Below are positions 21,597 to 47,767 of a stretch of DNA of 64,000 bases, in pieces. The notes below the pieces were generated by a model. That model saw only the letters and a program-made list of their open reading frames with translations, searched no databases and was not told where the DNA came from. Positions within the stretch are counted from its first letter, which is position 1, and every line of letters begins with the position of its first letter. Position numbers and translations under genes: made by a program. Source of the stretch: Bacilli bacterium (GTDB taxonomy: Bacteria; Bacillota_I; Bacilli_A; RF39; UBA660); NCBI GenBank assembly GCA_045649455.1, contig JAZRPV010000058.1, positions 66,552-130,551 of the forward strand, written 5' to 3'.

Positions 21597-22397
21597 TTAT
21601 TCTGTTACTTTTTTCAATTTAAGTATGAATCTTTCTATCCATTTGTGTTCATCTCTATCTTTGATATATAAATATCCAAATACAGAAAATATTACGGCTC
21701 CTATGAAGTTTACGAATAAATCTTTCATAGTATCAATTATTCCAATATCAAGGTATCCATCAATTACAATTTGTTTTCCATTATTATATGTAATTTCAGT
21801 TTTATCTATATCATTCATGACAATCATTTCATTATTTTCATCTAGATATTTTGTTTGGAATACTTCAACTATACGATCTTTTTGCATATCTTGATTAAAA
21901 TAGTAGTCAGCCGTAAATTCAAAGAATTCCCACATTACTCCCACTGTCATTGAAAAACAAAATGATACTAATGCGACAAAGACAGGTGTCATCTTAATAT
22001 GAAATTTATCTGTTCTATTTAAAATATCAACTGTAGAGAAGCCTACGGCTGCACATAAGAAACCGTTTAATGTATGAAGCATAGTATCCCAATGTTCAAA
22101 TATTCCGTAGAAGTTTTGAATTTCTCCACAAATCTCTGCTGCGTATATAAATAAGTAAACAATTATTTCTAGTGTTTGTGGAAGTTCTATTTTAAATGTT
22201 CTTGAGAATAATCCAGGGAATGTAAATAATATAAGCGTTAGAACACATAAAAAGACGTTATTCCAGTTTCCATGTATTGCTTGTGCAACTGCTGATACTA
22301 TTACTAAAAATCTTAGTACAATGTAAACAATTATAGTAGTTCTTCTATTTTGAAGTTCTTTTTTTATTTCTTGTTTCTTCTGCTCTGATTTTTTCAT
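21597..22397 (-). CDS. Polytopic membrane protein (possibly YjdF/DUF2238-like); unknown function
   Basis: 266 aa with about 6 hydrophobic helices and a HWDTMLHTLNGF motif. 1-nt overlap with the upstream lipid kinase gene. Confidence 0.45.
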   Translation of the reverse strand: MKKSEQKKQEIKKELQNRRTTIIVYIVLRFLVIVSAVAQAIHGNWNNVFLCVLTLILFTFPGLFSRTFKIELPQTLEIIVYLFIYAAEICGEIQNFYGIFEHWDTMLHTLNGFLCAAVGFSTVDILNRTDKFHIKMTPVFVALVSFCFSMTVGVMWEFFEFTADYYFNQDMQKDRIVEVFQTKYLDENNEMIVMNDIDKTEITYNNGKQIVIDGYLDIGIIDTMKDLFVNFIGAVIFSVFGYLYIKDRDEHKWIERFILKLKKVTE

Positions 22398-25978: not shown

Positions 25979-26005
25979 ACAAAAAAAGAACTTATTAAAG
26001 TTCTT
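25979..26005 (-). terminator. Rho-independent terminator after tagG
   Basis: Perfect 8-bp stem AAGAACTT/AAGTTCTT (25986-25993 / 25998-26005) spanning the stop, with a U-run on minus. Confidence 0.6.
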
Positions 26006-26768
26006 CTACAAAGCTTTTTTCTAACTTTTTGAAAATCATGTATCCTATAACTAGTACTGCTAAACTTCCAAGTCCCCATATTGTCAACATAACCATATCT
26101 GGTAGTTGATGATAATAAAGAATCGAACGATATGCTTCTACTAGTTGAGCCATAGGATTGATTTTTAAGAAAATTTGAAATTTTTCTGGTAACATATTTG
26201 CTTGATATACAATTGGAGTAGCATAAAAACCTAACATGATTATTACGCTTACAAAATGTGATACATCTTGAGCAAAAACTGTTAACGCTGATAATATAAA
26301 TGTAATTCCAAGTGTAAGAATATATTGAATTAATACTAGTAGTGGAAATAATAGTATATGTATTGAAAACCCTACTCCACTAAATAATATAAATACAACC
26401 ATTATTAAACATGTTATTAAAAAATTAACTAATTGACTTGTTGTTGTTGAAATAGGAATGATTTCTCTTGGAAAATATACTTTCTTTAATATATTACCAT
26501 TTGCAACTACACTTCCTGTTCCTGTTTGAACTGCTGTTGTAAAGAAGTTCCATGGGATTAAGGCAACAATCATAAAGATTGTATAATTATCAACTTTTAC
26601 TCTTAAAATATAAGGAAAAACTAATGCATATACAGCTAACATTAATAAAGGATTTAGGAAGGTCCATAAAATTCCTAACCAAGAACCTTTATACTTTCCT
26701 CTTATTTCTTTTTTTATATTTGTTTTTAATAGTTCTCTATAATTATATAATTCTGTAAATACTTTCAT
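25995..26768 (-). CDS. tagG: ABC-2 type polysaccharide/teichoic-acid export permease
   Basis: 257 aa, 6 TM helices. The N-terminal YRELLKTNIKKEIRGKYKGSWLGILW is the typical TagG/Wzm signature. Confidence 0.85.
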   Translation of the reverse strand: MKVFTELYNYRELLKTNIKKEIRGKYKGSWLGILWTFLNPLLMLAVYALVFPYILRVKVDNYTIFMIVALIPWNFFTTAVQTGTGSVVANGNILKKVYFPREIIPISTTTSQLVNFLITCLIMVVFILFSGVGFSIHILLFPLLVLIQYILTLGITFILSALTVFAQDVSHFVSVIIMLGFYATPIVYQANMLPEKFQIFLKINPMAQLVEAYRSILYYHQLPDMVMLTIWGLGSLAVLVIGYMIFKKLEKSFVEEL

Positions 26769-26772
26769 TTAA

Positions 26773-27516
26773 TCACCCACAAATCTCCAAGTATTTTTCA
26801 AGAACTTTATCAACTTCTCCGTCCATTTTTATTTCACCTTTATATAACCATACTGCTCTGTTGCAGAATTGTTTAACTTGATCCATATTATGTGTAACGA
26901 TTACGATAGTTTTTCCAGAATTTTTAAGCTCTCTTAATTTATTAAAACATTTTTCTTGGAAATGTTTATCACCTACTGCAAGAATTTCATCAATAAGTAG
27001 GATTTCTGCTTGTACATTTATTGCTACTGAAAAAGCAAGTCTCATATACATTCCCGAAGAATACGTTCTTACAGGATTATCAATAAAATCTTTTAACTCA
27101 GAAAATTCAATTATTTCATCTACTTTGGCATCTATTTCTTTTCTTGTTAGTCCAAAAATTGATGCATTGAAATATATATTTTCTCTTCCAGTAAAATCAT
27201 CATGGAATCCTGCACCTAATTCTAATAGTGATGTCAGTTTTCCATTTGTAATAATTTTACCTTTGTTAGGATAAATTATTTTTGTCATTAGTTTTAATAG
27301 TGTTGATTTTCCAGAACCGTTTGTACCTATTAAAGCTACACTTTCACCTTTTTTTATTTCTAAATTTAAATTTTTCAATACATGATGAATTGAATCTTTA
27401 CTTCTATTTTTCTTTGAGAAGAATAAGATTTTTTCTTTTAATGTATTTGCTTTATCATAATATAGTTTAAAATCTTTTGATACATTTTTAACTAATATCG
27501 CTGTGTCTTTTTCCAC
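26773..27516 (-). CDS. tagH: Polysaccharide/teichoic-acid export ATP-binding protein (short form, no C-terminal wall-binding domain)
   Basis: 247 aa. Walker A GTNGSGKST, signature YSSGM, Walker B LLIDE. Confidence 0.85.
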   Translation of the reverse strand: MEKDTAILVKNVSKDFKLYYDKANTLKEKILFFSKKNRSKDSIHHVLKNLNLEIKKGESVALIGTNGSGKSTLLKLMTKIIYPNKGKIITNGKLTSLLELGAGFHDDFTGRENIYFNASIFGLTRKEIDAKVDEIIEFSELKDFIDNPVRTYSSGMYMRLAFSVAINVQAEILLIDEILAVGDKHFQEKCFNKLRELKNSGKTIVIVTHNMDQVKQFCNRAVWLYKGEIKMDGEVDKVLEKYLEICG

Positions 27517-27601: not shown

Positions 27602-29851
27602 TTATTTTCTAATTATTGATAATACTGTTTGTTTAATAATGGATAATATTTTTCTTATTAATTTGAAGATTATTCTTATAACATTTAGAGTTAATGGAAC
27701 AATCATTATTATTGATGTAAATAAATTCTTTATAAATTCAACAAAATTAGAGATTGTTGTCTTAATATTTCTTAACCAGTTTAGTCCATATGCCATTTCT
27801 GTTTCCATATGATTTTTTATCGCAAATGTTCTAAGTTTTTTTGTTATAGAAATTGGTCCTCTATCTACATCTTCTCTTGGAATAATATTATGATATTTAC
27901 TATAGTAACTTAGATAATTAGCATTATATTCATTACGTAGCTCATTTTCATATTGTGTATAAACTTCATACATAAATGTTTTTTCATCCATTGATAATTT
28001 TTTATCTTTTATTGTCTTTTTAATACTCATTACTAAACTATCATATTTATTACTTATTATTGTATACTCTTCTTTAACATTCTTTTTATATTTAGATAAT
28101 TCTTCTATTACTTCTTTAATTGCAGTTACATATTCACCATCAGTAACTAATTTTCCTATTTTTTCAGAAACTATCTCATCTTGGTTTTCTAGTATTGTTG
28201 AAACAACCGGCACTCCATTTTCAATTGCCTTATAGTTAGTTGATGAGACATCTTCTTTACAAGCACAATTTACAATAACATCACTTATTTTATAAATAAT
28301 GTCATATTCTTCTTGTTCCGGTATATAAATTAGATTTGAAATTTTCGAAAATTGTTTTTCTAAGTTTCTAACCATTAATCCATTACCATTAATTATAAAC
28401 ACGGCATCTTCAATTGATTTTGCCAAATTCATAAATAGTTGTGGATTTCTTTCATGTACTACATTGTCAATAAAAGATATAACTATTTTATCTTTTGGGA
28501 TATTATATTTTTCTTTTAGTGCTTTTATATTAATTTTTTCATTTTCTAATTTTTGTTTTGTATAATTAATTAATTCTATATTTTCAGATACTAATTCTTT
28601 ATTAGTTGTATATGTTTTATTAATTAAACTAATAATATTATTTGTTCTTATTGAAGGAATGTTGTTTTCTATAATATCAATTACTTTGATTTCAGGATTT
28701 GTTTGTTTTATTAAAGGTAACATTGCATATCCATATGAAGCATTATTTATTATTACTGAATTAACATTTCTTGATGTAATTAAATGACTTACATATAATG
28801 GATAATCTTTTGTATCTAGGAAGTTGCTTAAATCATGAATTTCTGAAACATAATCTTTAATATCTTGTCTCATATTATTTTTTGATGGTTCTGTTAAGAT
28901 TAAAATACAATTGCTATCTTGACTTAGTCTTTTTATCATTTCATATGTTGCTATTGAATTTTTACTTAAATTGATATTGTCTGCAATAAGCATTATTGTA
29001 TCTTTTTTTGTTTTCTTATATGTTGGTAAAGTCATTGTATCATGTGTATTTATTGTTGGTCCAACTTTACTAATTTGTGGAAATTGGATAACTTCTACGT
29101 TATTTTTTACTAATTTAGCAGTGCTATTAATTAGTTTTTGAGCTTTTTTATGATTTGATCTTGCTCTTGATAGTTCTCCAGATAAACTTGTTCTATACCA
29201 AAATAATGGTGAATTTAATCTGATTGGAGTTTTTCCTTTTGATAATAATTTTAGCCATAAATTCCAATCTTCATACATAGCTTTTTCTTTGATTCCAAAG
29301 CATCCTACTTCTAATAAATCCTCTTTTTTTATCATTGAACTAATACACATTGTATTTAAAACTAATTCTTCTTCTAATGTAAAATATGGTTCCCAGTAGT
29401 ATTCATTAGCACCAAAATTAATCATTGCTGCATATACCCAACTAGCATTTTTGTGAGTTTCTAAAGCCCAGTACATTTCTTCTAACATTGTATTTTCTAT
29501 CAAGTCATCACAATCTAAGAAATAAATATATTTTGCTGATGGTGATGATTTTGCAATACCAAAATCTCTAGCTTGAGATGGTCCTCCGTTTTCCTTATGG
29601 AATACTTTAATTCTTTTATCCCATTTGCTTACTTCGTCTAATTTTTTTAAACAACTTTCAGATTTTGAACCGTCATCTATAATAATCCATTCAAAGTATG
29701 GATATGTTTGACTCAAAATAGTATTAGCTGTCTCTTCTAATGTAGAACCTCCATTATAAAATGGTGTAATAATTGTAATTGTTGGTTCTTGATTATTAGA
29801 TAATTCCCCTATTCTTTTTATTTCTTTTCCTGGTTTGTTTAAAAATTTCAT
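27602..29851 (-). CDS. Fusion: GT2 (N-terminal) + GT4/GT1-like domain + C-terminal hydrophobic/amphipathic helix
   Basis: 749 aa with AGGAGG SD. IITPFYNGGSTLEE...IIIDDGS...DCDD, then a Rossmann-like region ending AIENGVPVVST, then the IIMIVPLTLNVIRIIFKLI tail. Confidence 0.7.
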   Translation of the reverse strand: MKFLNKPGKEIKRIGELSNNQEPTITIITPFYNGGSTLEETANTILSQTYPYFEWIIIDDGSKSESCLKKLDEVSKWDKRIKVFHKENGGPSQARDFGIAKSSPSAKYIYFLDCDDLIENTMLEEMYWALETHKNASWVYAAMINFGANEYYWEPYFTLEEELVLNTMCISSMIKKEDLLEVGCFGIKEKAMYEDWNLWLKLLSKGKTPIRLNSPLFWYRTSLSGELSRARSNHKKAQKLINSTAKLVKNNVEVIQFPQISKVGPTINTHDTMTLPTYKKTKKDTIMLIADNINLSKNSIATYEMIKRLSQDSNCILILTEPSKNNMRQDIKDYVSEIHDLSNFLDTKDYPLYVSHLITSRNVNSVIINNASYGYAMLPLIKQTNPEIKVIDIIENNIPSIRTNNIISLINKTYTTNKELVSENIELINYTKQKLENEKINIKALKEKYNIPKDKIVISFIDNVVHERNPQLFMNLAKSIEDAVFIINGNGLMVRNLEKQFSKISNLIYIPEQEEYDIIYKISDVIVNCACKEDVSSTNYKAIENGVPVVSTILENQDEIVSEKIGKLVTDGEYVTAIKEVIEELSKYKKNVKEEYTIISNKYDSLVMSIKKTIKDKKLSMDEKTFMYEVYTQYENELRNEYNANYLSYYSKYHNIIPREDVDRGPISITKKLRTFAIKNHMETEMAYGLNWLRNIKTTISNFVEFIKNLFTSIIMIVPLTLNVIRIIFKLIRKILSIIKQTVLSIIRK

Positions 29852-31271: not shown

Positions 31272-31295
31272 AAAAAAAGGCTTATTTAGCCTTTT
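31272..31295 (-). terminator. Rho-independent terminator after yfhO
   Basis: Stem AAAGGC/GCCTTT with a 7-nt loop spanning the stop. U7 on minus. Confidence 0.6.
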
Positions 31296-33495
31296 TTAAA
31301 TTTACTTTATAAAAATATATTCCATATACTAAAGCACTGATAATTGAAGAAATTATTCCTAAATTTAATCCCGGTGTTTTATATGTAAATTTTATTTCAT
31401 TTTGTCCTTGATTAATTTTTATTGCTATCATTCCATTATCTACTTTTTCTACTACTGCTGCTTTACCATTAATAGTTGCTCTCCATCCTTTGTCATATGG
31501 AATTGCGTAAATAGCCAAAGTTTCTCCACTACTATTAATTTTAGATGAAAAACCATTGATTTCAAAACTAAATTTATTACTTAAATAATTTACTTCATTA
31601 GAATATAATTTTTTATATTTTGAAATTTGTTTTTCATCTAAAATTATATGAGTATTTAATGTTTCTTTTTTGTCTTCATCTGATAGTTGATTAAATTCTT
31701 CATGTGACATATATTCATTTACATTAAATCCAAATTCTTTATAATCTTCGTTTAGATATATGTAATAGTTTTCTGTTTCTTTTACTAATTTGTAGTTATT
31801 CATTGGAATATCTACACGACTAATTACATATTTTATACCTAAAAAGTCATATAATTTATCATTTACTCCGTCTCTAACTGGTAATAATGTACTTACTGCT
31901 CTCTCGTATCCTATACTCTTATAAAATTCGAAATTGGTTCCATTCAAGTTTGAATTGAATGCTCTCATATTATTAAATCTTCCAATATATCCCATGTTTG
32001 CATAACATGAATAATCTCCAATTGTACGTACATCTTCGAATGATAATTCATTTTTAATATTCAAATATATTTTATAGTTATCATTTTTATATAAATTAAA
32101 ATCTATATAATGATAAGTCATATAATTTCCCCATAATGTAACAAATACAAATATTGAAATTATTAGATATTTAATTTTTTTATGAGTCATATTTTTACAT
32201 ATATAGAATGTTACAAATAAGCATATAATAGCCATTAAAACCATCACAATAAAATACACTTTATCGTAGAATATATAAATATTTTTTATTCTCCACATGT
32301 ATAATAATGTTCCTATTCCAGTTAATACAAATAGTCCAATATTTATAAATAATGGAATTTTTAAACTACACTTATCCTCTAGACATTTTATAGACATTAA
32401 TGACAATATTAATGTTGGCATGTAGAACCATCTAGCATAATAAGCTCCTACAAACATAAAGAAACTACTATTTAATACTGGTACACACATAAATATACCT
32501 AGTACTACAATTAAGATACTATACCATTTTTTAGGATGTTTGAAAAAGCACCCTAATGCTAATAATACTCCGACAACTGGTAAATAAGCTTCTATACTAG
32601 TGTAATTAGATTCTGTTATAAATGAACGTGCATTCATAACTTCGGCGGGAAATATAAATGCTCTTAATAATTCAATATAATTCTCAATTGGATGTTTAAT
32701 TAACTGAATTAAAGTTGATTCATTAGATACTCTCGGATTAGAAATAATAAATAATGCAGTTGGTAGTAATGCAATCATCGCAATACCTATTCCGCAAATC
32801 CCTTCAAATATTAAGTATCCTATTTTCTTCCATTCAAATTTATATTCTTTACATATTAATTTAATAACAAAATATAATATTAGGAAAATACCTTGTCCAA
32901 TAAAGAAAAACCAGTTAGTAAAAGCTAGTAATGCAACAACTAATCCAAACCAACCTTTCTTATTATCATACATGTAATTATCAAATGTATATAACAATAA
33001 TGGAAAGAATGCAACTACATCATGAAAATGATAGAACATGGTATTTGTTAGTTGAAATCCTGAAAAAGCATACAACAAAGATCCAATTATGGCATATTTA
33101 TCATTTTTTACATATCTTTTTAAAAATAAGTATGATGTTAAACCTGCAACTCCATATTTTAATATAAATATCCATCCAACTAAATATGGAAACCATGATG
33201 CAGGAAATATATATGCTATAAGATTAAATGGACTAAATAGATTGTAGAAAGTGAAAGTACCTATAAAATTACTTCCTAATTCATTAAACCATGTCCACAA
33301 AAAACTTCCCTCTTTTAATGATTCATTAATCATCATATTAAATGAAATTTCTTGAAGAGTAAAATCAGATAATAATGCATATTGTCCCTTGCCATATATC
33401 AGAGTTGGAAGAATGATTAATGCTCCTAAACATATTGAATAGAAAAATGCTAAAAATAATTTGTTTTTAAATATTTTTTTAATTTTTCCTTTCAT
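31282..33495 (-). CDS. yfhO: YfhO-family polytopic membrane glycosyltransferase (GT-C-like)
   Basis: 737 aa. More than 12 TM helices in the N-terminal two thirds, a large extracytoplasmic C-terminal domain and a final TM. Typical YfhO layout. Confidence 0.75.
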   Translation of the reverse strand: MKGKIKKIFKNKLFLAFFYSICLGALIILPTLIYGKGQYALLSDFTLQEISFNMMINESLKEGSFLWTWFNELGSNFIGTFTFYNLFSPFNLIAYIFPASWFPYLVGWIFILKYGVAGLTSYLFLKRYVKNDKYAIIGSLLYAFSGFQLTNTMFYHFHDVVAFFPLLLYTFDNYMYDNKKGWFGLVVALLAFTNWFFFIGQGIFLILYFVIKLICKEYKFEWKKIGYLIFEGICGIGIAMIALLPTALFIISNPRVSNESTLIQLIKHPIENYIELLRAFIFPAEVMNARSFITESNYTSIEAYLPVVGVLLALGCFFKHPKKWYSILIVVLGIFMCVPVLNSSFFMFVGAYYARWFYMPTLILSLMSIKCLEDKCSLKIPLFINIGLFVLTGIGTLLYMWRIKNIYIFYDKVYFIVMVLMAIICLFVTFYICKNMTHKKIKYLIISIFVFVTLWGNYMTYHYIDFNLYKNDNYKIYLNIKNELSFEDVRTIGDYSCYANMGYIGRFNNMRAFNSNLNGTNFEFYKSIGYERAVSTLLPVRDGVNDKLYDFLGIKYVISRVDIPMNNYKLVKETENYYIYLNEDYKEFGFNVNEYMSHEEFNQLSDEDKKETLNTHIILDEKQISKYKKLYSNEVNYLSNKFSFEINGFSSKINSSGETLAIYAIPYDKGWRATINGKAAVVEKVDNGMIAIKINQGQNEIKFTYKTPGLNLGIISSIISALVYGIYFYKVNLKKAK

Positions 33496-33546: not shown

Positions 33547-34506
33547 TTAGTTTTTTTCTTCTAAATTTTCTGAAATAATAAATCTTGGTCTTTGTTTTGT
33601 TTCATTATACATTTTCCCAATATATTCACCAATTATTCCAATACTGATCATTTGGAGTCCTCCAATAAACCAAATTGAAATTGATAAGAAGGTCCATCCT
33701 GTTACTGTATTTCCGAGAATTTTTTGAATTAATGAATAAACCATAATTATAATACTTACAAATAGTACTGCAAATCCTAATATACATATAAATCTTAACG
33801 GTTTAACACTAAATGATGTTATACCATCCCAAGCAAAATTTAACATTTTCTTTAAAGGATACTTAGATTCTCCTGCAAAGCGTTCATTTCTTTCATAGTA
33901 AACAACATCTGATTTATAGCCCACTAATGGGAACATTCCTCTTAAGAATAAATTAACTTCTTTAAAGTTTGCAAACTCTTCTAATACTCTTTTAGATGTT
34001 AAACGATAATCAGCATGATTATATACAATGTCAACTCCTAAGAATTTCATTACTTTATAAAAACCTTCTGCAGTTGTCTTTTTAAACCATGTATCAGTTT
34101 TTCTTGCACTTCTTACTCCATATACAATATCACATCCTTCGTGATATTTATCAATCATTCCTTCAATGGCATTAATGTCATCTTGTAAATCTGCATCCAT
34201 GCTTATTACTACATCTGCATAGTTTTTTGCCGTCATCAAACCTCCAAGTAAGGCATTTTGATGACCCCTATTTCTTGATAATGTTATACCTGTAAACAAT
34301 TCTTCTTTCTTGTTTATTTCTTTTATTATTTCCCATGTTTTATCTTTAGAGCCATCATTTACATACATCACTCTACTCTTATCAGATATCTTTTTGGCTT
34401 TAATCATTGATTGTAATTTGTTTTTTAGTTGCTTTGTTGTTTCTTCCAAAACTTGCTCTTCATTATAACAAGGAACTACTAGATATAATATTGTTTCTTT
34501 TTTCAT
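33547..34506 (-). CDS. csbB: GtrB/CsbB-like polyprenyl-phosphate hexosyltransferase (GT2 with two C-terminal TM helices)
   Basis: VVPCYNEE, VNDGSKDKT, SRNRGHQNA, SMDADLQDD, then two TM helices. ATG at 34506 behind GAGGTG; the ORF-track start is a GTG inside the SD. Confidence 0.8.
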   Translation of the reverse strand: MKKETILYLVVPCYNEEQVLEETTKQLKNKLQSMIKAKKISDKSRVMYVNDGSKDKTWEIIKEINKKEELFTGITLSRNRGHQNALLGGLMTAKNYADVVISMDADLQDDINAIEGMIDKYHEGCDIVYGVRSARKTDTWFKKTTAEGFYKVMKFLGVDIVYNHADYRLTSKRVLEEFANFKEVNLFLRGMFPLVGYKSDVVYYERNERFAGESKYPLKKMLNFAWDGITSFSVKPLRFICILGFAVLFVSIIIMVYSLIQKILGNTVTGWTFLSISIWFIGGLQMISIGIIGEYIGKMYNETKQRPRFIISENLEEKN

Positions 34507-34525
34507 TTCTCTCACCTCTACAAAG

Positions 34526-35083
34526 TTATTTCAACTTTTTAATTTTATTTTTCTTTACTAGGTATGCTGTTTCAGATATATCCATCATCGGCTTATCTGA
34601 CATAGAATCTGAGTAAAAACTTTTTAATTTCTTATGTTTGGTTTCTTGATAAAATCTTTTTACTTTTTCTATATCGTGACAATTTAGTGATTCAAATGTT
34701 CCTGTTTTTTTATTTACTTTTGTACCAATAATTTTAACTTTTAGTTTATTTTCTAATGGTTTTAATAAAAATTCAGGAGATGCCGATATAATAATATCAC
34801 TCTTTTCTTGTTGTTCAATATACCATTTTTTTATCTTAGTATAATTTCTTTTCCAAAACTTTTCAATATAATCATCAATATCATCTATTTCTTGAAGGAA
34901 AGAGAATACATACTCTTTGCATTTTGTTTTATCTATTTTCTTAATTATATAAAGTATTAGTCCATATATTTGATGAGGTAAAGTTAATAATATTTTTTTA
35001 TTTCTTTTTACAGAATATAGATAAAAATCTAAACTTGAATCTCCATCATAAATTGTACCATCAAAGTCATATCCGTTTATCAT
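34526..35083 (-). CDS. HAD-IB family phosphatase
   Basis: 185 aa. DFDGT motif I, SASP motif II, a YSDSMSDKPM motif IV-like region. 4-nt overlap with the ubiA-like gene. Confidence 0.7.
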   Translation of the reverse strand: MINGYDFDGTIYDGDSSLDFYLYSVKRNKKILLTLPHQIYGLILYIIKKIDKTKCKEYVFSFLQEIDDIDDYIEKFWKRNYTKIKKWYIEQQEKSDIIISASPEFLLKPLENKLKVKIIGTKVNKKTGTFESLNCHDIEKVKRFYQETKHKKLKSFYSDSMSDKPMMDISETAYLVKKNKIKKLK

Positions 35084-35952
35084 AATAAGTATAATAGTCC
35101 TCCCATAATTATTATATATAACACTATAGCTCCAATTAAAACTTTATCTTCAAGTATAACTTCTATTGGATCACCGTGAGAATCTTTTTCTATATTTAAA
35201 CTATATAGTTGTAGAATTACTAATACAAGTGGTACGGTCCAAAATAAATAGTCATTACCTATTCTTGTTATTGTAGTAGAATCTACACACCATAATGTAT
35301 AAGAAACTACAGCTAATGCAAGTGATACATACATGTTTTTATCTAAGAAATCTTTATTATACAGTTCAAGAACCTTACGACTTTTTTCACCATTTTTTAT
35401 AATTTCATTTCTTCTTTTACCAAACCCAAGATAGAAAGAACCAAAAATTATCATTAAATATAACCATTTTGAAACTTCGATATTATTGATTATGCCACCA
35501 TACATTACTCTAAATAAAAATCCTGAAACTAATATAACTACATCAATTATTGGAACATGTTTTAGCCATTTACTATATAAGATATTTAATATTAGATATA
35601 TTAGTGGAATAATAGCTATACCAATATTTTTATTTGATATGTAAGTAAGGATTATCATTGTTATAGTTAACAATGATATCACAAGTATTGTGATATAAGC
35701 ATTTTTTATACTTATATCTCCAGAAGCCAATGGTCTATTCTTTTTTATTGGATGTTTTTTATCTTTTTCAATATCATTTATATCATTTATAACATATACA
35801 ATTGATGATGTTAATGAAAATATAAAAAATGCAACAACTGTTGTTATAAAGTATTTGATATTAAATATATTTATGCTAAAGAAGATTGGTAAAAATACCA
35901 ATCCATTCTTTAACCAATGTTTTATTCTAATCAGTTTTAGATACTTCTTCAT
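35080..35952 (-). CDS. UbiA-superfamily polyprenyl-phosphate phosphoribosyltransferase-like protein (Rv3806c/DPPR-synthase-like)
   Basis: 290 aa, about 8-9 TM helices. IRIKHWLKN start and NDINDIEKD (NDxxDxxxD) followed by KNRPLASG. Confidence 0.7.
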   Translation of the reverse strand: MKKYLKLIRIKHWLKNGLVFLPIFFSINIFNIKYFITTVVAFFIFSLTSSIVYVINDINDIEKDKKHPIKKNRPLASGDISIKNAYITILVISLLTITMIILTYISNKNIGIAIIPLIYLILNILYSKWLKHVPIIDVVILVSGFLFRVMYGGIINNIEVSKWLYLMIIFGSFYLGFGKRRNEIIKNGEKSRKVLELYNKDFLDKNMYVSLALAVVSYTLWCVDSTTITRIGNDYLFWTVPLVLVILQLYSLNIEKDSHGDPIEVILEDKVLIGAIVLYIIIMGGLLYLL

Positions 35953-38638
35953 CTACTTCCACTCCCAATCTCCAATTATACATATATACAATGTCTTCAT
36001 CCGGAATTTCTCTTACAAGTCTGTAATCTATATTTCTATCTTGCAAGTTATATAAATATCCATATAAATCTAACATTGGTAATTTTATTTTAGGATTATC
36101 CATTTCATCAATTACTTCTAAATCTCTTTCTATTTGTATAAAAGATTTAGCTGTTAAATAATTAGGAATTGCAAATACTAATATATTCATGCTTAATGTA
36201 CCAACTATTAGTAACATACCTATGTATGGTATTATTTTCTTTTTAAAGTATTTAGCTGTTATTAATGCCAACAAAATTGTTCCTACTGTATATAAATACA
36301 TTTGCGGTACATATCTAGCCCACCAACTTTCACCTACTAATATCATTGATACAATAATAGTTAGTGCTGTTATTACTACATATTTACATTTTCTTTTTTC
36401 ATTTTTATACAATTTCGGTAAACATATAATGAATACTATAGTTGTAAATATAAATGCCAAAGCAAAAAATGGTCCAAATCCAGCAATTCTTACATCAGGT
36501 CCTTGCAATTGTTCTATTTCACTTCTATATATCATTATTGGCCATTTTAAAGTAGGTTCTTTTTTACTATATTGAGTAATGTTTTCTGTTTTTGAGAATA
36601 ATGACCAGACAAACTTTTGTGGAATTGATATCCTATTAAATACATCGGGTTGCATCGTTGTTATAATATCTACTTTATCTTTTCCAATTAATGGATATAG
36701 TGGATTTAAATGGTCAATTGTATTTTTTACATAAGAATTGGCTCCTACTAAAAAAACAGCAATTCCAAATACAATGATAAAGTTTCTTGTTGTTATTAAG
36801 AATTTGTTCCAAAATTCTTTTTCTTTTATATATTTTATTAACCAATAAAAATAGAATACTGCTGCTATAATACCTGAATATAATAATCCAGTAAATTTTA
36901 AATTAACAAATAAAGCAGCTGTTGCACATAACATTATCCAAATAAGTGTATTTTGTTTTCTCATTGGCTTTATTGTAAATAGCAATATTAGTTCAATTGC
37001 AAATAATATTCCCATTAAACTATCTAGATAGTAAGAAAATATTTGTGATAAAGTAATTGGATTTAACGCAACTAATAATGATATACCTAGTGAATATATT
37101 CTTGGTATAACTTGTTTTAAAATATTATATGATATTAACACAAGCACTATAGATAATACCAAGGTTATATACTTACCACTTTCAATATTTCCGGTCATAC
37201 TATATGTTGCTGCTGCGCTAACCCATGTTGCTTTTGGATAATGCTCCATCCATAAATCTAATTTACTCTCTTTTGCTATTGGAACAACATTTGTATTTGT
37301 TTTTTGAAATTCTCTAACATCCTCATATAGTGGATTCCATCCATTTTTTATATAAGCAATTGAGGACTTGTGATAACTGTTACCATCAACTGTTAAGTCA
37401 TATGTGTGACTATATAAAAATGGCAATGCTACCATTAATAGTAAATATATTATTGATACAATTATTTTTGATTTTTTTGTATTTTTGCTTTTCCACCAAT
37501 ACGCAAATAGTGGTACTAATAGTCCCAATACTTGTATAAGTAATAATGCATTATTTATATTAAATATTTGCAGTATTGAGTGTGATACTAGAACTACTAA
37601 GAAATATGATAAAAGCATTGCACTTAATTGAAACGAAGGTGCTTTGATTATATTTTTTATTTTATTATCATATGTATCTTTTTGTACCTTTTCATTAAAT
37701 AAATTATAAATAGTACAATATATTTTAGAAATAAATTTATTTTTTTCGATGGTTCTTCTTAAGAAATTTCTTCCTTCATAATATTTGTTATCTTTATAAT
37801 CAGGAACTTCTTTTTTCAAATAAGAAAAAGCTTCATTAATAAATTCCATTCCTGTTTTAATATTTTCTTGATTGCGTTGTTGGATTGTGTAATTAGTTAT
37901 TATTCTTACTGTTAATTTATCAACCACATCTTTCGCTTCTTGTAAACTTTTAAAACTTTTTCTGATCATATCAACAATTTTAATAATATCAAATATCTTT
38001 TCATTTCTAACTGTTGTTTCACTTTGTTCGTGAATGACATAAAAATGTAATAATTTATTTAACTTACCAATTTTTTTAGAGTTTTTTATTGTTTCGGCAA
38101 CAAATGGTGCATCTTCATATTTTAAATCTTCTACAAACTTTGTTTTATGTTTTGTTATGATCTCTCTTTTGTACAATTTATTACAAGGTCCTAAATTAAT
38201 ATCAATTAATAAATTAGGATTTTCTTTTAATGATGATGCTTTAAAATCATTAATTATTACTTCTTTTAGGCCATCTGGTTCTACTCTATAAAAATCAAAT
38301 ACAACCATATCTAACTTATTTTTTTCTGCTGTCTCATATAATTCATTACACGCATCTTTATCTAGATAATCGTCACTATCTAGAAACATAATATATTTTC
38401 CAGTAGCTTTTTCAATACCAAAATTTCTAGTCTTACCTATTCCTTGATTATTATTTTTGAAATACTTTATTCTTTTGTCTTTATATTCTTTTATAATTTT
38501 TTCAGAGCTATCTGTAGAACCATCATTTACTAGAATAAATTCTAATTCTTTTTTTGTTTGATTTACTAATGAATCAATACATTTATTTAAATATTTTTCC
38601 GCATTATATATTGGTACTACAATACTTATATCTGTCAT
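35927..38638 (-). CDS. Fusion: cytoplasmic GT2 + about 590-aa polytopic GT-C-like membrane domain
   Basis: 903 aa. VVPIYNAEKYL...VNDGSTDSS...LDSDD, then 10 or more hydrophobic helices whose first outside loop carries YDLTVDG. 26-nt overlap with the ubiA-like gene. Confidence 0.65.
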   Translation of the reverse strand: MTDISIVVPIYNAEKYLNKCIDSLVNQTKKELEFILVNDGSTDSSEKIIKEYKDKRIKYFKNNNQGIGKTRNFGIEKATGKYIMFLDSDDYLDKDACNELYETAEKNKLDMVVFDFYRVEPDGLKEVIINDFKASSLKENPNLLIDINLGPCNKLYKREIITKHKTKFVEDLKYEDAPFVAETIKNSKKIGKLNKLLHFYVIHEQSETTVRNEKIFDIIKIVDMIRKSFKSLQEAKDVVDKLTVRIITNYTIQQRNQENIKTGMEFINEAFSYLKKEVPDYKDNKYYEGRNFLRRTIEKNKFISKIYCTIYNLFNEKVQKDTYDNKIKNIIKAPSFQLSAMLLSYFLVVLVSHSILQIFNINNALLLIQVLGLLVPLFAYWWKSKNTKKSKIIVSIIYLLLMVALPFLYSHTYDLTVDGNSYHKSSIAYIKNGWNPLYEDVREFQKTNTNVVPIAKESKLDLWMEHYPKATWVSAAATYSMTGNIESGKYITLVLSIVLVLISYNILKQVIPRIYSLGISLLVALNPITLSQIFSYYLDSLMGILFAIELILLFTIKPMRKQNTLIWIMLCATAALFVNLKFTGLLYSGIIAAVFYFYWLIKYIKEKEFWNKFLITTRNFIIVFGIAVFLVGANSYVKNTIDHLNPLYPLIGKDKVDIITTMQPDVFNRISIPQKFVWSLFSKTENITQYSKKEPTLKWPIMIYRSEIEQLQGPDVRIAGFGPFFALAFIFTTIVFIICLPKLYKNEKRKCKYVVITALTIIVSMILVGESWWARYVPQMYLYTVGTILLALITAKYFKKKIIPYIGMLLIVGTLSMNILVFAIPNYLTAKSFIQIERDLEVIDEMDNPKIKLPMLDLYGYLYNLQDRNIDYRLVREIPDEDIVYMYNWRLGVEVDEEVSKTD

Positions 38639-38639
38639 G

Positions 38640-39569
38640 TTATACCCACTTTCCTAATGTTTTATAATATAATTTTGGTGATATCTTTAATAATAATTTT
38701 TTTATTTTTCGTGGAAGTGTATCATCTAAAACATTATCATATGCTTTTTCTTGTTTTAAACATTTTTGATATTTTCGATAATCTTTTCCTTTTAATGTAC
38801 ATGACTTTAAAATAATACTATTTGCTACAAAACTTTTAAATGCTTTACTATTTATGTTTGTTTTATCAATTTCACTTATTAGGAATCTATAATGTTCTAA
38901 CATATCTAAAGCTTTTTTCTTTGTCTTTTCATAACTAGTTGAATTCATTGTACTACCAGTTCTTTGGATATAGTTATATCCAATATATTCAATACTATTT
39001 ACTAATTCTGCTTTTATAATTATTAATGGTATAAGCCCATAATCTTCATGTACTAGTCCTGGTTTAAATTGAAATTTATTTTTATTCCAATATTCTCTTT
39101 TTATTGCATATGGACATGCTGCATCAACAATGTGATATTTACAAATTTCTTCAAATGCTTTTTCACCAGTCAAACCTTTAAATCCCTTTTCTTTATACTC
39201 AATAATTCCATCTTGTTCTTCATAAATTTCTTTCATTTGAAATCTTACAACGTCTGGCTTATTTTTTAGGCTCTTATTAATTTGATTTAATAAGTCTTTT
39301 TCCCAATAGTCATCCGAGTCTAAGAAAATAAGGTATTCTCCTTTTGCTTTTTTTATACCATTATTTCTAGCAGTACTTTGTCCTTGATTTTTTTGTTCAA
39401 TCACTTTGACATCATAATTCTTTACTATATCCATACTTTTATCTGGTGTTCCATCATTTATAATGATCACTTCAAAATCTTTAAAACTTTGATTAAATAC
39501 ACTTTCAAGACATTTTTTGATATACTTTTCTACCTTATATACTGGAATTATAATACTGAATTTTGGCAT
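38640..39569 (-). CDS. GT2-family glycosyltransferase
   Basis: 309 aa. IIIPVYKVEKYIKKCLESV...IIINDGTPDKS...LDSDD. Confidence 0.85.
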   Translation of the reverse strand: MPKFSIIIPVYKVEKYIKKCLESVFNQSFKDFEVIIINDGTPDKSMDIVKNYDVKVIEQKNQGQSTARNNGIKKAKGEYLIFLDSDDYWEKDLLNQINKSLKNKPDVVRFQMKEIYEEQDGIIEYKEKGFKGLTGEKAFEEICKYHIVDAACPYAIKREYWNKNKFQFKPGLVHEDYGLIPLIIIKAELVNSIEYIGYNYIQRTGSTMNSTSYEKTKKKALDMLEHYRFLISEIDKTNINSKAFKSFVANSIILKSCTLKGKDYRKYQKCLKQEKAYDNVLDDTLPRKIKKLLLKISPKLYYKTLGKWV

Positions 39570-41887
39570 TATATCACCTCATCAAATACTTCTTCAATTT
39601 TAAGCATTCTCTTCTTTTGAATTTCTTCTAAATCAACTTTTTTAAAATTTTTCTTTATCTTATTATCTAGAATATCTTTAACTTCTTTAGCCATTTTCTT
39701 TTCGTCTTTTGATACAATATAAGCAAAATCTTTTCCAATATTCATTGCTTCATCAGACACATCTATTGTTGTAATAATTTTTGTACCTAATACTATTGAT
39801 TCTAAATAAACAACAGGATATCCTTCATAGTCAGAAGTTAATATTGTATAATCCGCTTGTTTCATATACGGATATGGATTTTGTTTTTTTCCAAAGAATG
39901 TTACTCTTGATGTTAATTTATTCTTCTTGACATATTCTTCATATAATTCTCTATCTGGTCCGTCTCCTATTACCCATAATTCTGTTCCATCTATTTCTTT
40001 TATTACATTTAACGCTCTTCTCATCTTCTTAGATGCATCTTCTAATCTTCCTACAAATATAAATAGTATAGTATTCTTCTTCTTTTTGGCATTTATTTTT
40101 TCTAAAGATCCTTTTTTTATGGATTCTATATCATTAAAATTATTAATTGTAATACACTTATTTTCATATTCAGGATATTTTTTTATGAAGTCTCTTCTTG
40201 CCTCATTTGCTACAAATATTATCTTTTTAAATTTACTAATATTTCTTGATTCAAAGAAACTTTTAAATTCATTTATATCCTCATAAATATATGTATAATT
40301 ACTATGAATATAAAATGCCGTATTTGTTGAAGCCATTAAAGATAACTTATTACCACTATAACTGTAAGTAGCATAGCATATACTACAGTCATAATTGTTA
40401 TATTCTAATATAGCAAATAATAATTTTCTGGACATGTTTATTAATTTTCTTAAAAATACATTTTTATTATTAGAAACTTTTACTTCTATAATATTAGCTT
40501 TAGGAGTTATTATTGGTAAGAATATACCTTTCTTTTCTTCTACTATTACATCTACATCATATTTTCTATAATCTATTCTATTTAGTAAATTAACTAAAGC
40601 CTTTTCTATTCCTCCGATATCAAAATTATATGTTGTGAATAAAACTCTCTTCTTATTTCTTTTTGCCAACATAATAATTAAAATTGCTGCAATAAGGCTT
40701 ACTGCTGGACCTGTTATTATGTGACCAGTAAACATTGATAAAACTAGTATTAATAATAGTGCTACTAATTGCATACATCTTGTATATGTTGTTTTTTGTT
40801 TTACTTTAAATATTTGTGATAATACATATAGATAAATTCCAAAGTATAATGCAAATCCAATTATTCCGTGTGAATAAAATATATCAAAATAATCCATTTC
40901 AATTGCTTTAGTTACTTTATTTTTATGAGTATATCCAATACCAAATATTTTTTCATATGCAGATGATTTTAAATATAAATCATTTTTGTTTTCTAAGAAA
41001 GTTAATCTTTGACTAAAGATAAAATGATCTACTAATTCATATTCAGTAAACACTTCAAATACATTGTCTACTTCTAAATAATCTAAATGTATTTCAATAT
41101 TTTTATAAAAGTTTGTTTTTGGTAAAACTAAAATTAGACTAGCAAATCCTACTAGGATTAATACTACAGAATAAATAATTGGTTTGTATGTTTTCTTCTT
41201 TATACAATGATACATATAATATATAAAGATAGAACCTAAAGTTATACATAATGATAATAATGGAGTTTTTGTTCCCATCATAAGAATAACAATTAAATAT
41301 ACTAATAACATTAAACCTTTAATTAAATATTTATTTTTTCCTAGTATTAAAATAAACATTATTGGTGTTAATAAAGATATAATTCCACTTATTTCATTTG
41401 CCGAATTATAAAAACCTAATGTACCAATTTTTGCAATTTGATATGTTTTAAATCCTATATTTAAAAGACTAGGTATAAAGATACACATTAAATATGTGAA
41501 TAATGTTATTACTAAAGTTAAGTTGCTTACTTTTATTTCATTTCTAATTTCATATAAAGATATTAATAATATTGGAAAATAGAAAGCTTTAACCAAACCT
41601 TGAATCTCTGCAAAATAACTTCCATCTTTATAAATAAATATTCCGATTAGATAAAGTATGGAGTAAAAAATAATACTTATATATATCCATAAACTTAATT
41701 TCTTTTTAAACACAAATGTTGTTACATACATTATTAATGCCAAGAATAAAATTCTTATAATAATTCCAATTGTAATATTAAAATCTAATAAGTTAACACA
41801 TAATCCGGTAATTAAATCTAAAATTGGTTGTAACAGTATAAAGATACTTACAATTTTACTAATATTTTTTTCAAGATATTTATTCAT
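39569..41887 (-). CDS. Fusion: O-antigen ligase/polymerase-like (Wzy_C-type) membrane domain + GT4 glycosyltransferase
   Basis: 772 aa. About 11 TM helices with an outside loop in the first ~400 aa, then FDIGGIEKALVNL...VGRLEDASK...GDGPDRE...EGYPVVYLES. Confidence 0.65.
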   Translation of the reverse strand: MNKYLEKNISKIVSIFILLQPILDLITGLCVNLLDFNITIGIIIRILFLALIMYVTTFVFKKKLSLWIYISIIFYSILYLIGIFIYKDGSYFAEIQGLVKAFYFPILLISLYEIRNEIKVSNLTLVITLFTYLMCIFIPSLLNIGFKTYQIAKIGTLGFYNSANEISGIISLLTPIMFILILGKNKYLIKGLMLLVYLIVILMMGTKTPLLSLCITLGSIFIYYMYHCIKKKTYKPIIYSVVLILVGFASLILVLPKTNFYKNIEIHLDYLEVDNVFEVFTEYELVDHFIFSQRLTFLENKNDLYLKSSAYEKIFGIGYTHKNKVTKAIEMDYFDIFYSHGIIGFALYFGIYLYVLSQIFKVKQKTTYTRCMQLVALLLILVLSMFTGHIITGPAVSLIAAILIIMLAKRNKKRVLFTTYNFDIGGIEKALVNLLNRIDYRKYDVDVIVEEKKGIFLPIITPKANIIEVKVSNNKNVFLRKLINMSRKLLFAILEYNNYDCSICYATYSYSGNKLSLMASTNTAFYIHSNYTYIYEDINEFKSFFESRNISKFKKIIFVANEARRDFIKKYPEYENKCITINNFNDIESIKKGSLEKINAKKKKNTILFIFVGRLEDASKKMRRALNVIKEIDGTELWVIGDGPDRELYEEYVKKNKLTSRVTFFGKKQNPYPYMKQADYTILTSDYEGYPVVYLESIVLGTKIITTIDVSDEAMNIGKDFAYIVSKDEKKMAKEVKDILDNKIKKNFKKVDLEEIQKKRMLKIEEVFDEVI

Positions 41888-42046: not shown

Positions 42047-43990
42047 ATGAGTAAGAAAAAAAAGAAAAAGAATAAACAAAATACTTCTGTTAGTGAAGAA
42101 GTTAAAATAGAAGAAGAAATTCAAGAAACTGAAGAGTCAATCGAAGAGGATGACCTAACTGCAGTAGAAGAAGATTCTAGTGATGAGATTATTGCAAATG
42201 AGGAAATCATAGAATATGAAGAAGAAGTTCCTGAAGTTGTTGCTACTAAGGTAGTTAATAATAAGAAGAAATATGATCCTACTATTTGTAATATGTTACT
42301 TATATTTGTACTATTGTGTAGTTTAGGTCATTTAGTTGGTAAATTAATAATTGGAGATGATGTTGTTATGAACTTAATTGGTTCGATGATTTTACTTTTA
42401 TTCTCTATGGCATTTATTTTACTTGGATTTAATTCTGGTAAGAGAAAAAAGAAATATGTGATACTTGGTTCTTTCCTACTAATATTATTCTTTGTGTTTA
42501 GTTTAGGAAGTAGTTATTTTAGTATAAATAATCAAGTTATTAATTTCTCTAATATGAAGTTAACTGAGGCAGTTAAATGGTTTGAAAATAAAGATATAGA
42601 ATTAGTTCAAATATATGAGTATAGCGATATGATTGATGAGTATCACGTTATAAGTCAAGATGTTAAGGCTGGCAGTTTAATTAATAAAACTAAGTCAATT
42701 ACTCTATCTATTAGTGAAGGACCTAATCCGAATAAAATGGTTGCTATTCCTAGTATGGTTGGATGGACAAGTGATCAAGTATTAGAATTTGTACTAAATA
42801 ATAAATTATCAAATGTTAATGTTTCATTTGTTACTTCTGATGGTATGGCTGATACAGTTATTAAACAAAGTAAAGTTGGAAATCTTGCAAGAAATGAAAA
42901 ATTAGAAATTGAATTTTCTTTAGGAGAAGGAAATGCTTTAGAAGAAATTAAGTTAATTGATTTTAAAAAGAAATCTGAATTTGAAAGTATTTTCTACATG
43001 AAAAAAAATCAAGTTAAATATGAAATAAAATATGCTTTCTCTGATAGTATTAAGAAAGGATATGTAATTAAACAAAGTATTAATGCTGGTAAAACAGTTA
43101 ATATTAAAAACGATAAAGTTGTTATTACTATTAGTAAAGGTCCTGAAATTAAGATAGCTGAACTTAGAGGTATGTCAATGAGTGATATTACTGACTGGGT
43201 TATTGATAATAAATTAAAACTTGAATTTACTGATAAGTATGATGATAGTACAAAAGAAAATCATGTTATTAGTGCTAACTACTCTAATGGAGATGTTGTT
43301 GAAGAAGGTACTGTTATTAAGATTGTTATTTCTAAAGGTAAATTAACAATGCCTAAGTTTGAAACTCTTAATGAGTATAGAGAATGGGTTAATAAATATA
43401 ATATTAATTCTGAAGAAAAACATGAATTTAGTGATACAGTTGCTGTTGGTAATATTATTAGATTCTCTCATAAAGAAGGAGATGTTATTAAGAATACTGA
43501 TACAGTTGTAGTAACAATTAGTGATGGTAAAAGGATTAGTGTTCCTAACGTTGTTGGTATCAGTAAAGATAGTGCTGCTAGTAAATTAAAAAATGCTGGC
43601 TTAGGGTATAATTTTGTTTATAGTTATAGTGATAGTGTTGCAAAAGGGAATACAATTAGACAATCAATTAGTGCTGGTTCTGGAGTTAGTCAAGGAACAG
43701 TAGTTACAGTTACAGTAAGTAATGGTAAGAAACCTTATACTCCACCTACTCCAACTGCTCCAAGTTGTGATAAATCTAAAGGTTCTGCTTTAAATATCCA
43801 ATATGGTTCATCTGGAAGCCAAACAGTATCTATGATTAAACAAATGAATCCAAATCACAAGTTCTCATTTAATTATGTTACATCATGTCCTAATGGAAGT
43901 ATTGCTCCTGGTTCTGTATGTAATGGAGCTAGTTTAGATGGTGTATGGAAAAACTATTGTGATACTATAACAGTTACAGTTATTAAATAA
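42047..43990 (+). CDS. Membrane-anchored protein with about six PASTA-like repeats and a 4-Cys C-terminal domain; no kinase or transpeptidase domain
   Basis: 647 aa. KKKKKKNKQ plus an acidic tail, 3 hydrophobic helices, then repeats each ending (I/V)S(E/K/D/N)G(P/K). The last repeat (VPNVVGISKDSAASKLKNAGL...VTVSNG) is near-canonical PASTA. Confidence 0.7.
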   Translation: MSKKKKKKNKQNTSVSEEVKIEEEIQETEESIEEDDLTAVEEDSSDEIIANEEIIEYEEEVPEVVATKVVNNKKKYDPTICNMLLIFVLLCSLGHLVGKLIIGDDVVMNLIGSMILLLFSMAFILLGFNSGKRKKKYVILGSFLLILFFVFSLGSSYFSINNQVINFSNMKLTEAVKWFENKDIELVQIYEYSDMIDEYHVISQDVKAGSLINKTKSITLSISEGPNPNKMVAIPSMVGWTSDQVLEFVLNNKLSNVNVSFVTSDGMADTVIKQSKVGNLARNEKLEIEFSLGEGNALEEIKLIDFKKKSEFESIFYMKKNQVKYEIKYAFSDSIKKGYVIKQSINAGKTVNIKNDKVVITISKGPEIKIAELRGMSMSDITDWVIDNKLKLEFTDKYDDSTKENHVISANYSNGDVVEEGTVIKIVISKGKLTMPKFETLNEYREWVNKYNINSEEKHEFSDTVAVGNIIRFSHKEGDVIKNTDTVVVTISDGKRISVPNVVGISKDSAASKLKNAGLGYNFVYSYSDSVAKGNTIRQSISAGSGVSQGTVVTVTVSNGKKPYTPPTPTAPSCDKSKGSALNIQYGSSGSQTVSMIKQMNPNHKFSFNYVTSCPNGSIAPGSVCNGASLDGVWKNYCDTITVTVIK

Positions 43991-47733: not shown

Positions 47734-47767
47734 TTAAAGTAAGAGTATAGGCTTAAGGAGGATGATT

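Follow-up and report, generated by a model that had tools for sequence, protein, structure and literature searches.

A probable extracytoplasmic pentofuranose glycosylation system, with a GT2–GT-C fusion protein, in a wall-polysaccharide operon of a Bacilli bacterium

Extracytoplasmic glycosylation from lipid-linked donors has been described in several forms, and these are compared here with three genes, coding for a fused glycosyltransferase (GT) of the GT2 and GT-C types, a UbiA-superfamily protein and a HAD-IB phosphatase, found in a Bacilli bacterium (assembly GCA_045649455.1, contig JAZRPV010000058.1, positions 66,552 to 130,551). The stretch analysed, hereafter the window, is 64 kb long with about 25% G+C, and was the only part of the genome inspected. 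In mycobacteria and corynebacteria, the decaprenyl-phospho-arabinose pathway comprises Rv3806c, Rv3807c, DprE1/DprE2, Rv3789 and the GT-C enzymes AftA-D and EmbA-C, its lipid-linked donor being used by the GT-Cs outside the membrane. Hexose systems combine a GtrB/CsbB-type synthase with YfhO or another GT-C, as in B. subtilis CsbB/YfhO, Listeria GtlA/GtlB and S. mutans PgfS/PgfM; in these, a GT2 using a UDP-sugar makes the polyprenyl-phosphate sugar inside, which is then flipped and used by the GT-C outside.

A ribofuranose system has been described in Citrobacter youngae, where a HAD–UbiA fusion (ORF15, with PRP and polyprenyl-phosphate phosphoribosyltransferase, PPPRS, domains), a small transporter or flippase (ORF14) and the GT-C ORF12, founder of family GT136, add alpha-ribofuranose (Ribf) after ABC export, ORF12 acting as an inverting enzyme and optional epimerases leading to xylofuranose (Xylf) or arabinofuranose (Araf) (Kelly et al., PNAS 2024, PMC11127046). 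ORF12 is assigned to the EpsG family by CDD, carries its catalytic Asp right after the first transmembrane (TM) helix, and ends in a beta-rich carbohydrate-binding module (PMC11127046). The same authors also name a candidate from Bacillus and a phage system whose PRP is an unfused protein, and find the epimerases within the candidate Araf and Xylf systems (PMC11127046). Moreover, as summarised in that paper, soluble cytoplasmic ribofuranosyltransferases combining a gPRT domain with a HAD PRP domain place beta-Ribf on the glycan at the expense of phosphoribosyl pyrophosphate (PRPP) (Kelly et al. 2022, via PMC11127046). Literature searches for follow-ups of GT136, for a link to Lactococcus and for ribofuranose wall polysaccharides associated with UbiA returned nothing beyond Kelly 2024.

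In the window, the three genes are probably the central part of a pathway for extracytoplasmic pentofuranose glycosylation, set within an ABC-transporter-dependent wall-polysaccharide operon. They belong to a long gene run on the minus strand, from 41887 to about 25995, and code for a 903-aa protein (35927..38638), a 290-aa UbiA protein (35080..35952) and a soluble 185-aa HAD protein (34526..35083). The ATG of the UbiA gene, at 35952, lies 26 nt within the open reading frame (ORF) of the 903-aa protein, whose TAG stop occupies 35927-35929, and an ATGA at 35080-35083 is common to the UbiA stop and the HAD start, giving a 4-nt overlap. The original prediction, made from the sequence and a list of ORFs, had described three translationally coupled genes, the first of them joining a GT2 to a many-helix membrane domain; the ORFs, both overlaps and the fusion were all found as it described, together with the motifs it quoted (VVPIYNAEKYL, NDGSTDSS, DSDD, YDLTVDG, NDINDIEKD and DFDGT). 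As in the three-component system of Kelly et al., genes for a PPPRS, a putative 5'-phosphatase and a GT-C lie together in a glycan locus; in the window they overlap, in an operon that also has GT2, GT4 and ABC transporter genes, with an LCP gene nearby.

Judged by its sequence, the UbiA protein is a polyprenyl-phosphate 5-phosphoribosyltransferase of the Rv3806c type, which is its predicted activity. It passed the NCBIfam model NF008978 for decaprenyl-phosphate phosphoribosyltransferase (DPPRS) with 211.0 bits (cut-off 207) and fell just under the cut-off of a second model of this name, NF008977 (217.5 bits, cut-off 234), whereas the best prenyltransferase model in NCBIfam reached 46.5 bits. 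NF006088 also matched, and Pfam recognised the general UbiA family only. Residues 5-284 align to M. tuberculosis Rv3806c as solved by cryo-EM (PDB 8j8j, E=5e-38), in which N73 and D77 form the Mg site, N73 and Q135 the ribose site, K28, Y70 and Y157 the 5'-phosphate site, and R22, K87, R90, Y138, K143 and K208 the pyrophosphate site, the phosphoribose site not being conserved in prenyltransferase UbiAs (PMC10994848). Ten of these twelve residues are identical in the window protein (R22 as R9, K28 as K15, Y70 as Y53, N73 as N56, D77 as D60, K87 as K70, R90 as R73, Y138 as Y126, K143 as K131 and K208 as K193), and the two changes are Q135 to N123 and Y157 to F145, the latter substitution occurring in some mycobacteria too. 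The NDxxDxxxD motif (N73, D77 and D81 in Rv3806c) reads N56-D57-I-N-D60-I-E-K-D64, and in the second cytoplasmic loop K179-R180..E183 is aligned to the KR..E motif of Rv3806c. In fact, the PRPP-site, Mg-motif and KR..E positions are invariant, or nearly so, in 66 UbiA genes neighbouring the GT-C family described below. A function as quinone or heme prenyltransferase was rejected on the DPPRS bit scores and because the residues of the Rv3806c site are conserved here but not in prenyltransferase UbiAs.

The membrane part of the 903-aa protein (residues 327-903, 577 aa, 35930..37660) shows about 10 hydrophobic segments by Kyte-Doolittle analysis and about 13-14 membrane helices in an AlphaFold2 (AF2) model built on the family alignment (pLDDT 91, pTM 0.93). 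When this model was compared with the PDB by Foldseek, the 17 best matches were all GT-C glycosyltransferases, AftA, an arabinofuranosyltransferase that depends on decaprenyl-phospho-arabinose, being at the top (E=7e-5), followed by STT3, Pmt4, PglB, DPY19, ALG9 and EmbB, all with a probability of at least 0.85. The domain has no Pfam match, and no sequence relative in the PDB was found either by phmmer with the 903-aa protein or with the family profile; among 57 relatives, 23 match Pfam PMT_2 weakly (best E=9e-7) and two match GtrII. Residues D414 and D418 (YDLTVDGNSYHK) are invariant across the 57 family sequences, as are the motifs WxEHYPK and ExWWARY, and the loop YDLTVDG with D414 and D418 is probably the catalytic one. 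The original prediction had placed it in the first outside loop, which is correct as to the side of the membrane, since the TM2-TM3 loop KSKNTKKSK is rich in lysine and the GT2 is cytoplasmic, but not as to the order: a turn of four residues (NINN) already lies outside, the lysine-rich inside loop comes next, and YDLTVDG follows TM3, which makes it the first large loop on the outside. At the C-terminus, some 55 residues form a small alpha/beta element in the AF2 model, without an Ig-like module.

Homologues of this domain number in the hundreds and are nearly all stand-alone proteins of about 560-590 aa; an exhaustive profile search among 50%-identity representatives gave 2,911 members at E<=1e-3 and 1,678 at E<=1e-30. 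Compared by hhalign, the family profile showed no similarity (probabilities of 1.1% at most) to the proteins that are GT-C candidates in the Rhizobium, Burkholderia and Lactococcus systems, or to the YfhO protein and the O-antigen-ligase-like domain of the window. The domain is described here as a putative polyprenyl-phosphate-ribofuranose-dependent glycosyltransferase.

The GT2 domain (about residues 1-300, 37739..38638; Pfam GT2 at residues 5-160) is of the GT-A fold. Its sequence matches in the PDB (phmmer) were GalT1, chondroitin synthase, TarS and TarP, and its NCBIfam matches were PRK10073 with 133 bits, TuaG with 77 bits and ArnC with 31 bits, so that by sequence it resembles GT2s that build or decorate polymers (TarS, TarP, GalT1 and TuaG types) and not those of the GtrB/ArnC type. 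Fusion proteins of 899-904 aa recur in independent assemblies, including the metagenome-assembled genome JAEDES01 (L007), with membrane domains 63-82% identical, and the fusion is therefore not an assembly artefact. It is restricted to the closest relatives; other genomes with this synteny usually have the GT2 and the GT-C as adjacent genes, the GT2 orthologue (313-315 aa) being a gene of its own directly upstream of the GT-C gene in loci L001-L005 and in many others. The fusion thus joined neighbouring genes in one small clade. Its topology is sensible, with the GT2 inside, three TM helices following and the catalytic loop outside.

The 185-aa protein is a HAD according to Pfam, and of subfamily HAD-IB according to NCBIfam TIGR01490/TIGR01488. 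Motif I reads DFDGT, both D6 and D8 being invariant in the alignment, and the AF2 model (pLDDT 95) led Foldseek to HAD-IB proteins of the phosphoserine-phosphatase-like fold. Queries with the HAD–UbiA fusions of Rhizobium and Burkholderia (phmmer) matched no HAD ORF, and a HAD profile searched against the PDB sequences found nothing. A role as 5'-phosphatase, converting polyprenyl-phosphate-ribose-5-phosphate into polyprenyl-phosphate-ribofuranose, would rest on gene coupling and gene fusions, because no relation to the PRP domain of the ORF15 type is detectable beyond motif I.

The linkage of these activities was assessed across genomes. Scanning one genome per species yielded 79 loci with the GT-C family, whose neighbours were counted by script. 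A DPPRS (Rv3806c-like) gene was found within 5 kb in 66 of the 79 loci, and a UbiA gene within 1.2 kb of 64 of the 84 family genes; a HAD like that of the window lay within 5 kb in 40 of the 79 loci, and nine loci have the HAD fused to the GT-C domain. The carriers belong to several phyla and include gut Bacilli known from uncultured material, under the labels Bacilli bacterium, 'Mycoplasma sp. CAG:877' and Ca. Fimihabitans, as well as Brevibacillus, Solibacillus, Desulfobacula, Pedobacter, Eggerthellaceae and Omnitrophota. UbiA and the GT-C are accompanied by an SMR protein and a divergent PAP2 in Brevibacillus reuszeri, and by a HAD–GtrA fusion in Solibacillus. In Brevibacillus, Solibacillus and Lactococcus, a HAD or a PAP2, together with GtrA or SMR as candidate flippase, occupy the same slots beside UbiA. 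Since the same slots are filled in three lineages, there is strong evidence that UbiA, phosphatase, flippase and GT-C work as one pathway.

The Lactococcus case is plasmid pF27D of the dairy species Lactococcus cremoris (L086 10596-13715), whose exopolysaccharide cluster codes for a hypothetical 462-aa membrane protein, a DPPRS, a HAD-IB and GtrA (83 aa). The HAD-IB is orthologous to that of the window (E=8e-50), the 462-aa protein is unrelated by sequence to the window GT-C, and the cluster is a candidate for a cultured, plasmid-borne pentofuranose system. Another arrangement is seen in a 695-aa protein (L001 12608-14695) composed of a HAD, as the N-terminal 190 aa, and a polytopic membrane domain of about 505 aa, also present in L007, L014, L015, L018, L022, L029, L032 and L043. 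This membrane domain stands alone in L020 (7834-9348), L046 (3703-5232) and L047 (170-1678); it has no Pfam match and no homologue in the window, and may be another transferase or the missing flippase. As regards phages, the phage collections contained no match for the GT-C domain and one weak match for UbiA (31.8% identity), IMG/VR contained no relative of the GT-C family, and a phage-borne seroconversion system found no support in these searches.

Epimerases and flippases were sought by phmmer with the DprE1-like, DprE2-like and GtrA proteins of a Rhizobium plasmid as queries, in the window and the 85 related loci. DprE1 had no match in either, DprE2 matched generic short-chain dehydrogenases/reductases (SDRs) only, and GtrA had no match in either. 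The window has a single SDR (11628-12377), a FabG-like protein at a distance of 23 kb. The source of the queries, plasmid pRspN324b of Rhizobium sp. N324 (L088 7323-14588), carries a complete cluster of the arabinofuranose type, in which a HAD–UbiA fusion is found with GtrA, an FAD oxidoreductase resembling DprE1, an SDR resembling DprE2 and two hypothetical membrane proteins (543 and 519 aa). Pfam recognised no epimerase or flippase-type family among the window ORFs of at least 148 aa other than gatA/gatB and the cut ORF 63458-64000; the four ORFs of 58-126 aa each have at most two predicted TM segments, and there is therefore no small four-TM ORF in the window. With no epimerase gene beside the module, it is most likely that the sugar is kept as ribofuranose, a possibility which the original prediction had raised on noticing that the window lacks DprE1/DprE2-like genes, and since the window shows no flippase, this protein is taken to be encoded elsewhere.

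These elements suggest the following pathway. On the cytoplasmic face, the UbiA enzyme would move ribose-5-phosphate from PRPP onto a lipid carrier, which general Firmicute biology suggests to be undecaprenyl phosphate, and the HAD-IB would strip the 5'-phosphate, as linkage and fusions indicate, leaving polyprenyl-phosphate-beta-D-ribofuranose. This donor would be flipped across the membrane by a protein encoded outside the window, and the GT-C domain of the 903-aa protein would transfer the ribofuranose, most likely kept as such with no epimerase gene in the module, onto the exported polymer, a step for which the fold and the gene linkage speak. The linkage formed may be alpha if the GT-C inverts as ORF12 of C. 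youngae does. The N-terminal GT2 would belong to the pathway of this polymer as a Leloir enzyme on the cytoplasmic side, and may, more speculatively, build the acceptor residue. The polymer itself would be assembled on the cytoplasmic side, leave the cell through the ABC transporter, be decorated outside by two GT-C systems and then be linked to peptidoglycan.

The surroundings of the three genes, all on the minus strand unless stated otherwise, are those of a glycan operon. A GtrB/PgfS-like GT2 of the polyprenyl-phosphate hexose synthase type (33547..34515; NF047588 PgfS 245 bits, ArnC 136 bits), with two hydrophobic segments at its C-terminus, starts 10 nt past the end of the HAD gene, and is followed by a YfhO-family GT-C (31282..33495; Pfam YfhO E=4e-81), which is likely its partner, the two forming a second extracytoplasmic decoration pair, of the hexose type. 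An ABC-2 permease and ATPase (25995..27516; Pfam ABC2_membrane and ABC_tran), also found in syntenic loci, are likely the exporter of the decorated polymer. The operon further codes for GT2s and a GT4 (Pfam), and for a GT2 with a GT1-family domain at 27602-29851. A terminator-like hairpin (31297-31273) overlaps the YfhO stop codon (31282-31284); promoter and terminator scans were overall no better than on shuffled sequence and give a weak hint of the operon limits only. At the head of the operon, a 772-aa protein (39569-41887) consisting of an O-antigen-ligase-like membrane domain (PF13425) and a GT4 is conserved in syntenic loci, and a divergently transcribed PASTA-domain gene (42047-43990) adjoins it. 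At the other end lies a GT2 fused to a polysaccharide pyruvyl transferase (23869-25911), which suggests pyruvylation of the wall polymer. Between the glycan genes and FemAB, two ORFs of 312 aa (20586-21524) and 266 aa (21597-22397), the latter with about four hydrophobic segments, have no significant Pfam match. The glycan locus is also flanked by an LCP-family protein with a C-terminal PASTA domain (47762-49855, plus strand), an LtaS-like sulfatase-family enzyme (50557-52632) and a GGDEF protein with a solute-binding domain (53560-55602), the LCP gene suggesting that the polymer is wall-linked.

Compared with C. youngae, the common elements are a PRPP-using phosphoribosyltransferase of the UbiA type, a HAD-superfamily protein as putative 5'-phosphatase, a GT-C predicted to act after ABC export, and ribofuranose being kept where no epimerase is present. 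The differences are several. The HAD of the window, 185 aa long, stands by itself and belongs to a different HAD subfamily, whereas the C. youngae PRP is fused to the PPPRS. The GT-C is set apart from ORF12 by description, its relatives having weak PMT_2-like matches and no EpsG match reported in 57 sequences; its acidic loop follows TM3 and it has no carbohydrate-binding module at its C-terminus, in contrast with the Asp after TM1 and the module of ORF12, and, unlike ORF12, it is fused to a Leloir GT2. Furthermore, no flippase gene comparable to ORF14 lies near the module, and the host is Gram-positive, the LCP gene pointing to a wall-linked polymer. With the Corynebacteriales pathway, the window shares a homologous first enzyme, as the alignment and the PRPP site show, a lipid-linked donor presumably used outside by GT-Cs, and a GT-C domain whose best structural match is AftA, and the Brevibacillus relatives share the PAP2 and SMR arrangement with it; in the window, however, there is no DprE1-like match, the phosphatase is a HAD and not a PAP2, the carrier is presumably C55 and not C50, and the likely role is the decoration of a wall polymer instead of arabinan polymerisation. 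The GtrB/CsbB systems have in common a polyprenyl-phosphate sugar that is produced inside, is then flipped and serves a GT-C on the outside, but there the synthase is a GT2 using a UDP-sugar, while the donor synthase of the window would be a UbiA-family, PRPP-dependent enzyme which, together with a phosphatase, supplies a pentofuranose. Finally, as far as the gPRT–PRP enzymes are described in the later paper, PRPP as ribose source and the removal of the 5'-phosphate by a HAD are common to both, although those enzymes act directly on the glycan in the cytoplasm, whereas in the window the first acceptor would be a lipid phosphate and the final transfer would take place outside.

Several findings weigh against the proposed system. 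In BLASTP, the HAD aligns with the HAD (PRP) domain of the Burkholderia fusion over 31 residues only, around motif I (E=0.002), and NF006088 does not match it, its substrate being assigned by context and not by orthology. The TM-scores of the membrane domain to solved GT-C enzymes are modest (0.38-0.45), and the Foldseek matches of the model are indicative of the fold class, not of a close relationship. A paralogous branch of the GT-C family directly follows a GtrB-like GT2, and not UbiA, in L004/L012 (16850-18592), L033 (16842-18587) and L055 (9941-11698), and since this sub-branch adjoins GtrB-like synthases, the donor type is probably not fixed across the family, which would then not be restricted to pentofuranose donors. 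Homology and TM scans found no small membrane protein like GtrA, SMR or MATE as candidate flippase in the window, which makes the system incomplete as seen, and epimerases could be encoded elsewhere in the genome.

The last point leads to an alternative in which the pathway is the same but arabinofuranose or xylofuranose is transferred, DprE1/DprE2-like or ORF13-like epimerases being encoded elsewhere. The same donor is indeed epimerised in Citrobacter O2, Rhizobium and Corynebacteriales, the inspected part of the genome amounts to 64 kb, and in Solibacillus (L082) NAD-dependent epimerase-family genes lie just past the GT-C gene. Nevertheless, systems for Araf and Xylf keep their epimerases in the cluster, beside UbiA in Rhizobium L088 and likewise in those of Kelly et al. 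(PMC11127046), whereas the window and the 85 loci gave no DprE1 match and generic SDRs only, that of the window being the distant FabG-like one; this outcome is considered unlikely. The paralogues that follow GtrB-like genes, and the 10-nt distance between the HAD and the GtrB-like gene, would also fit a GT-C using a polyprenyl-phosphate hexose from the latter, with the ribose donor serving YfhO or a distant GT-C. The window GT-C, however, groups with the orthologues that neighbour UbiA (45-56% identity and about 500-640 bits, the branch beside GtrB-like genes reaching about 250 bits), HAD–GT-C fusions exist, Brevibacillus has UbiA, SMR, PAP2 and GT-C with no GtrB-like match in the ±10-kb flanks (phmmer), and GtrB-like and YfhO proteins are an established pair, adjacent in the window, all of which makes this use of the donor quite improbable. 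Hardly any weight is given to the UbiA protein being an aromatic prenyltransferase (quinone, heme or similar) present in the operon by chance: the general UbiA assignment in Pfam would allow it, but the DPPRS models score 211-217 bits against at most 46 bits for prenyltransferase models, the phosphoribose-binding residues specific to Rv3806c are conserved, and the gene overlaps glycan genes on both sides.

The pentofuranose system first proposed thus agrees in most respects with the original prediction, which had compared the UbiA protein with Rv3806c, taken the phosphatase for a HAD and not a PAP2 enzyme and the membrane domain for a putative GT-C, and had inferred the donor logic now supported by the genome comparison, in which the GT-C family mostly lies beside an Rv3806c-like gene and in some cases forms one protein with the HAD. 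Its view that no characterised equivalent was at hand in Bacillota overrated the novelty, since the HAD, UbiA and GT-C logic keeping ribofuranose was known from C. youngae, and the logic including the flippase has already been published with Gram-positive candidates (PMC11127046). For this reason, the conceptual advance is modest. What appears new, as far as sequence comparison goes, is an apparently different GT-C family, a rare GT2–GT-C fusion and a free-standing HAD of another subfamily. Going further, it is a tentative and rather doubtful proposal that this large unmodelled family constitutes a CAZy-level, polyprenyl-phosphate-ribofuranose-dependent GT-C family distinct from GT136, which in the gut Bacilli clade would be united in one polypeptide with an acceptor-building Leloir GT2, acting on the polymer at both membrane faces.

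If the reading is true, the route from PRPP through a lipid-linked phosphoribose to a GT-C transferring pentofuranose would extend to Gram-positive wall polymers, including those of abundant uncultured gut Bacilli, and a widespread, unannotated GT-C family would acquire a testable function, for which Brevibacillus, Solibacillus and the Lactococcus cremoris plasmid pF27D offer cultured carriers for experiments. In this context, ribofuranose side chains would act as surface epitopes that vary between strains and bear on phage adsorption and host immunity.

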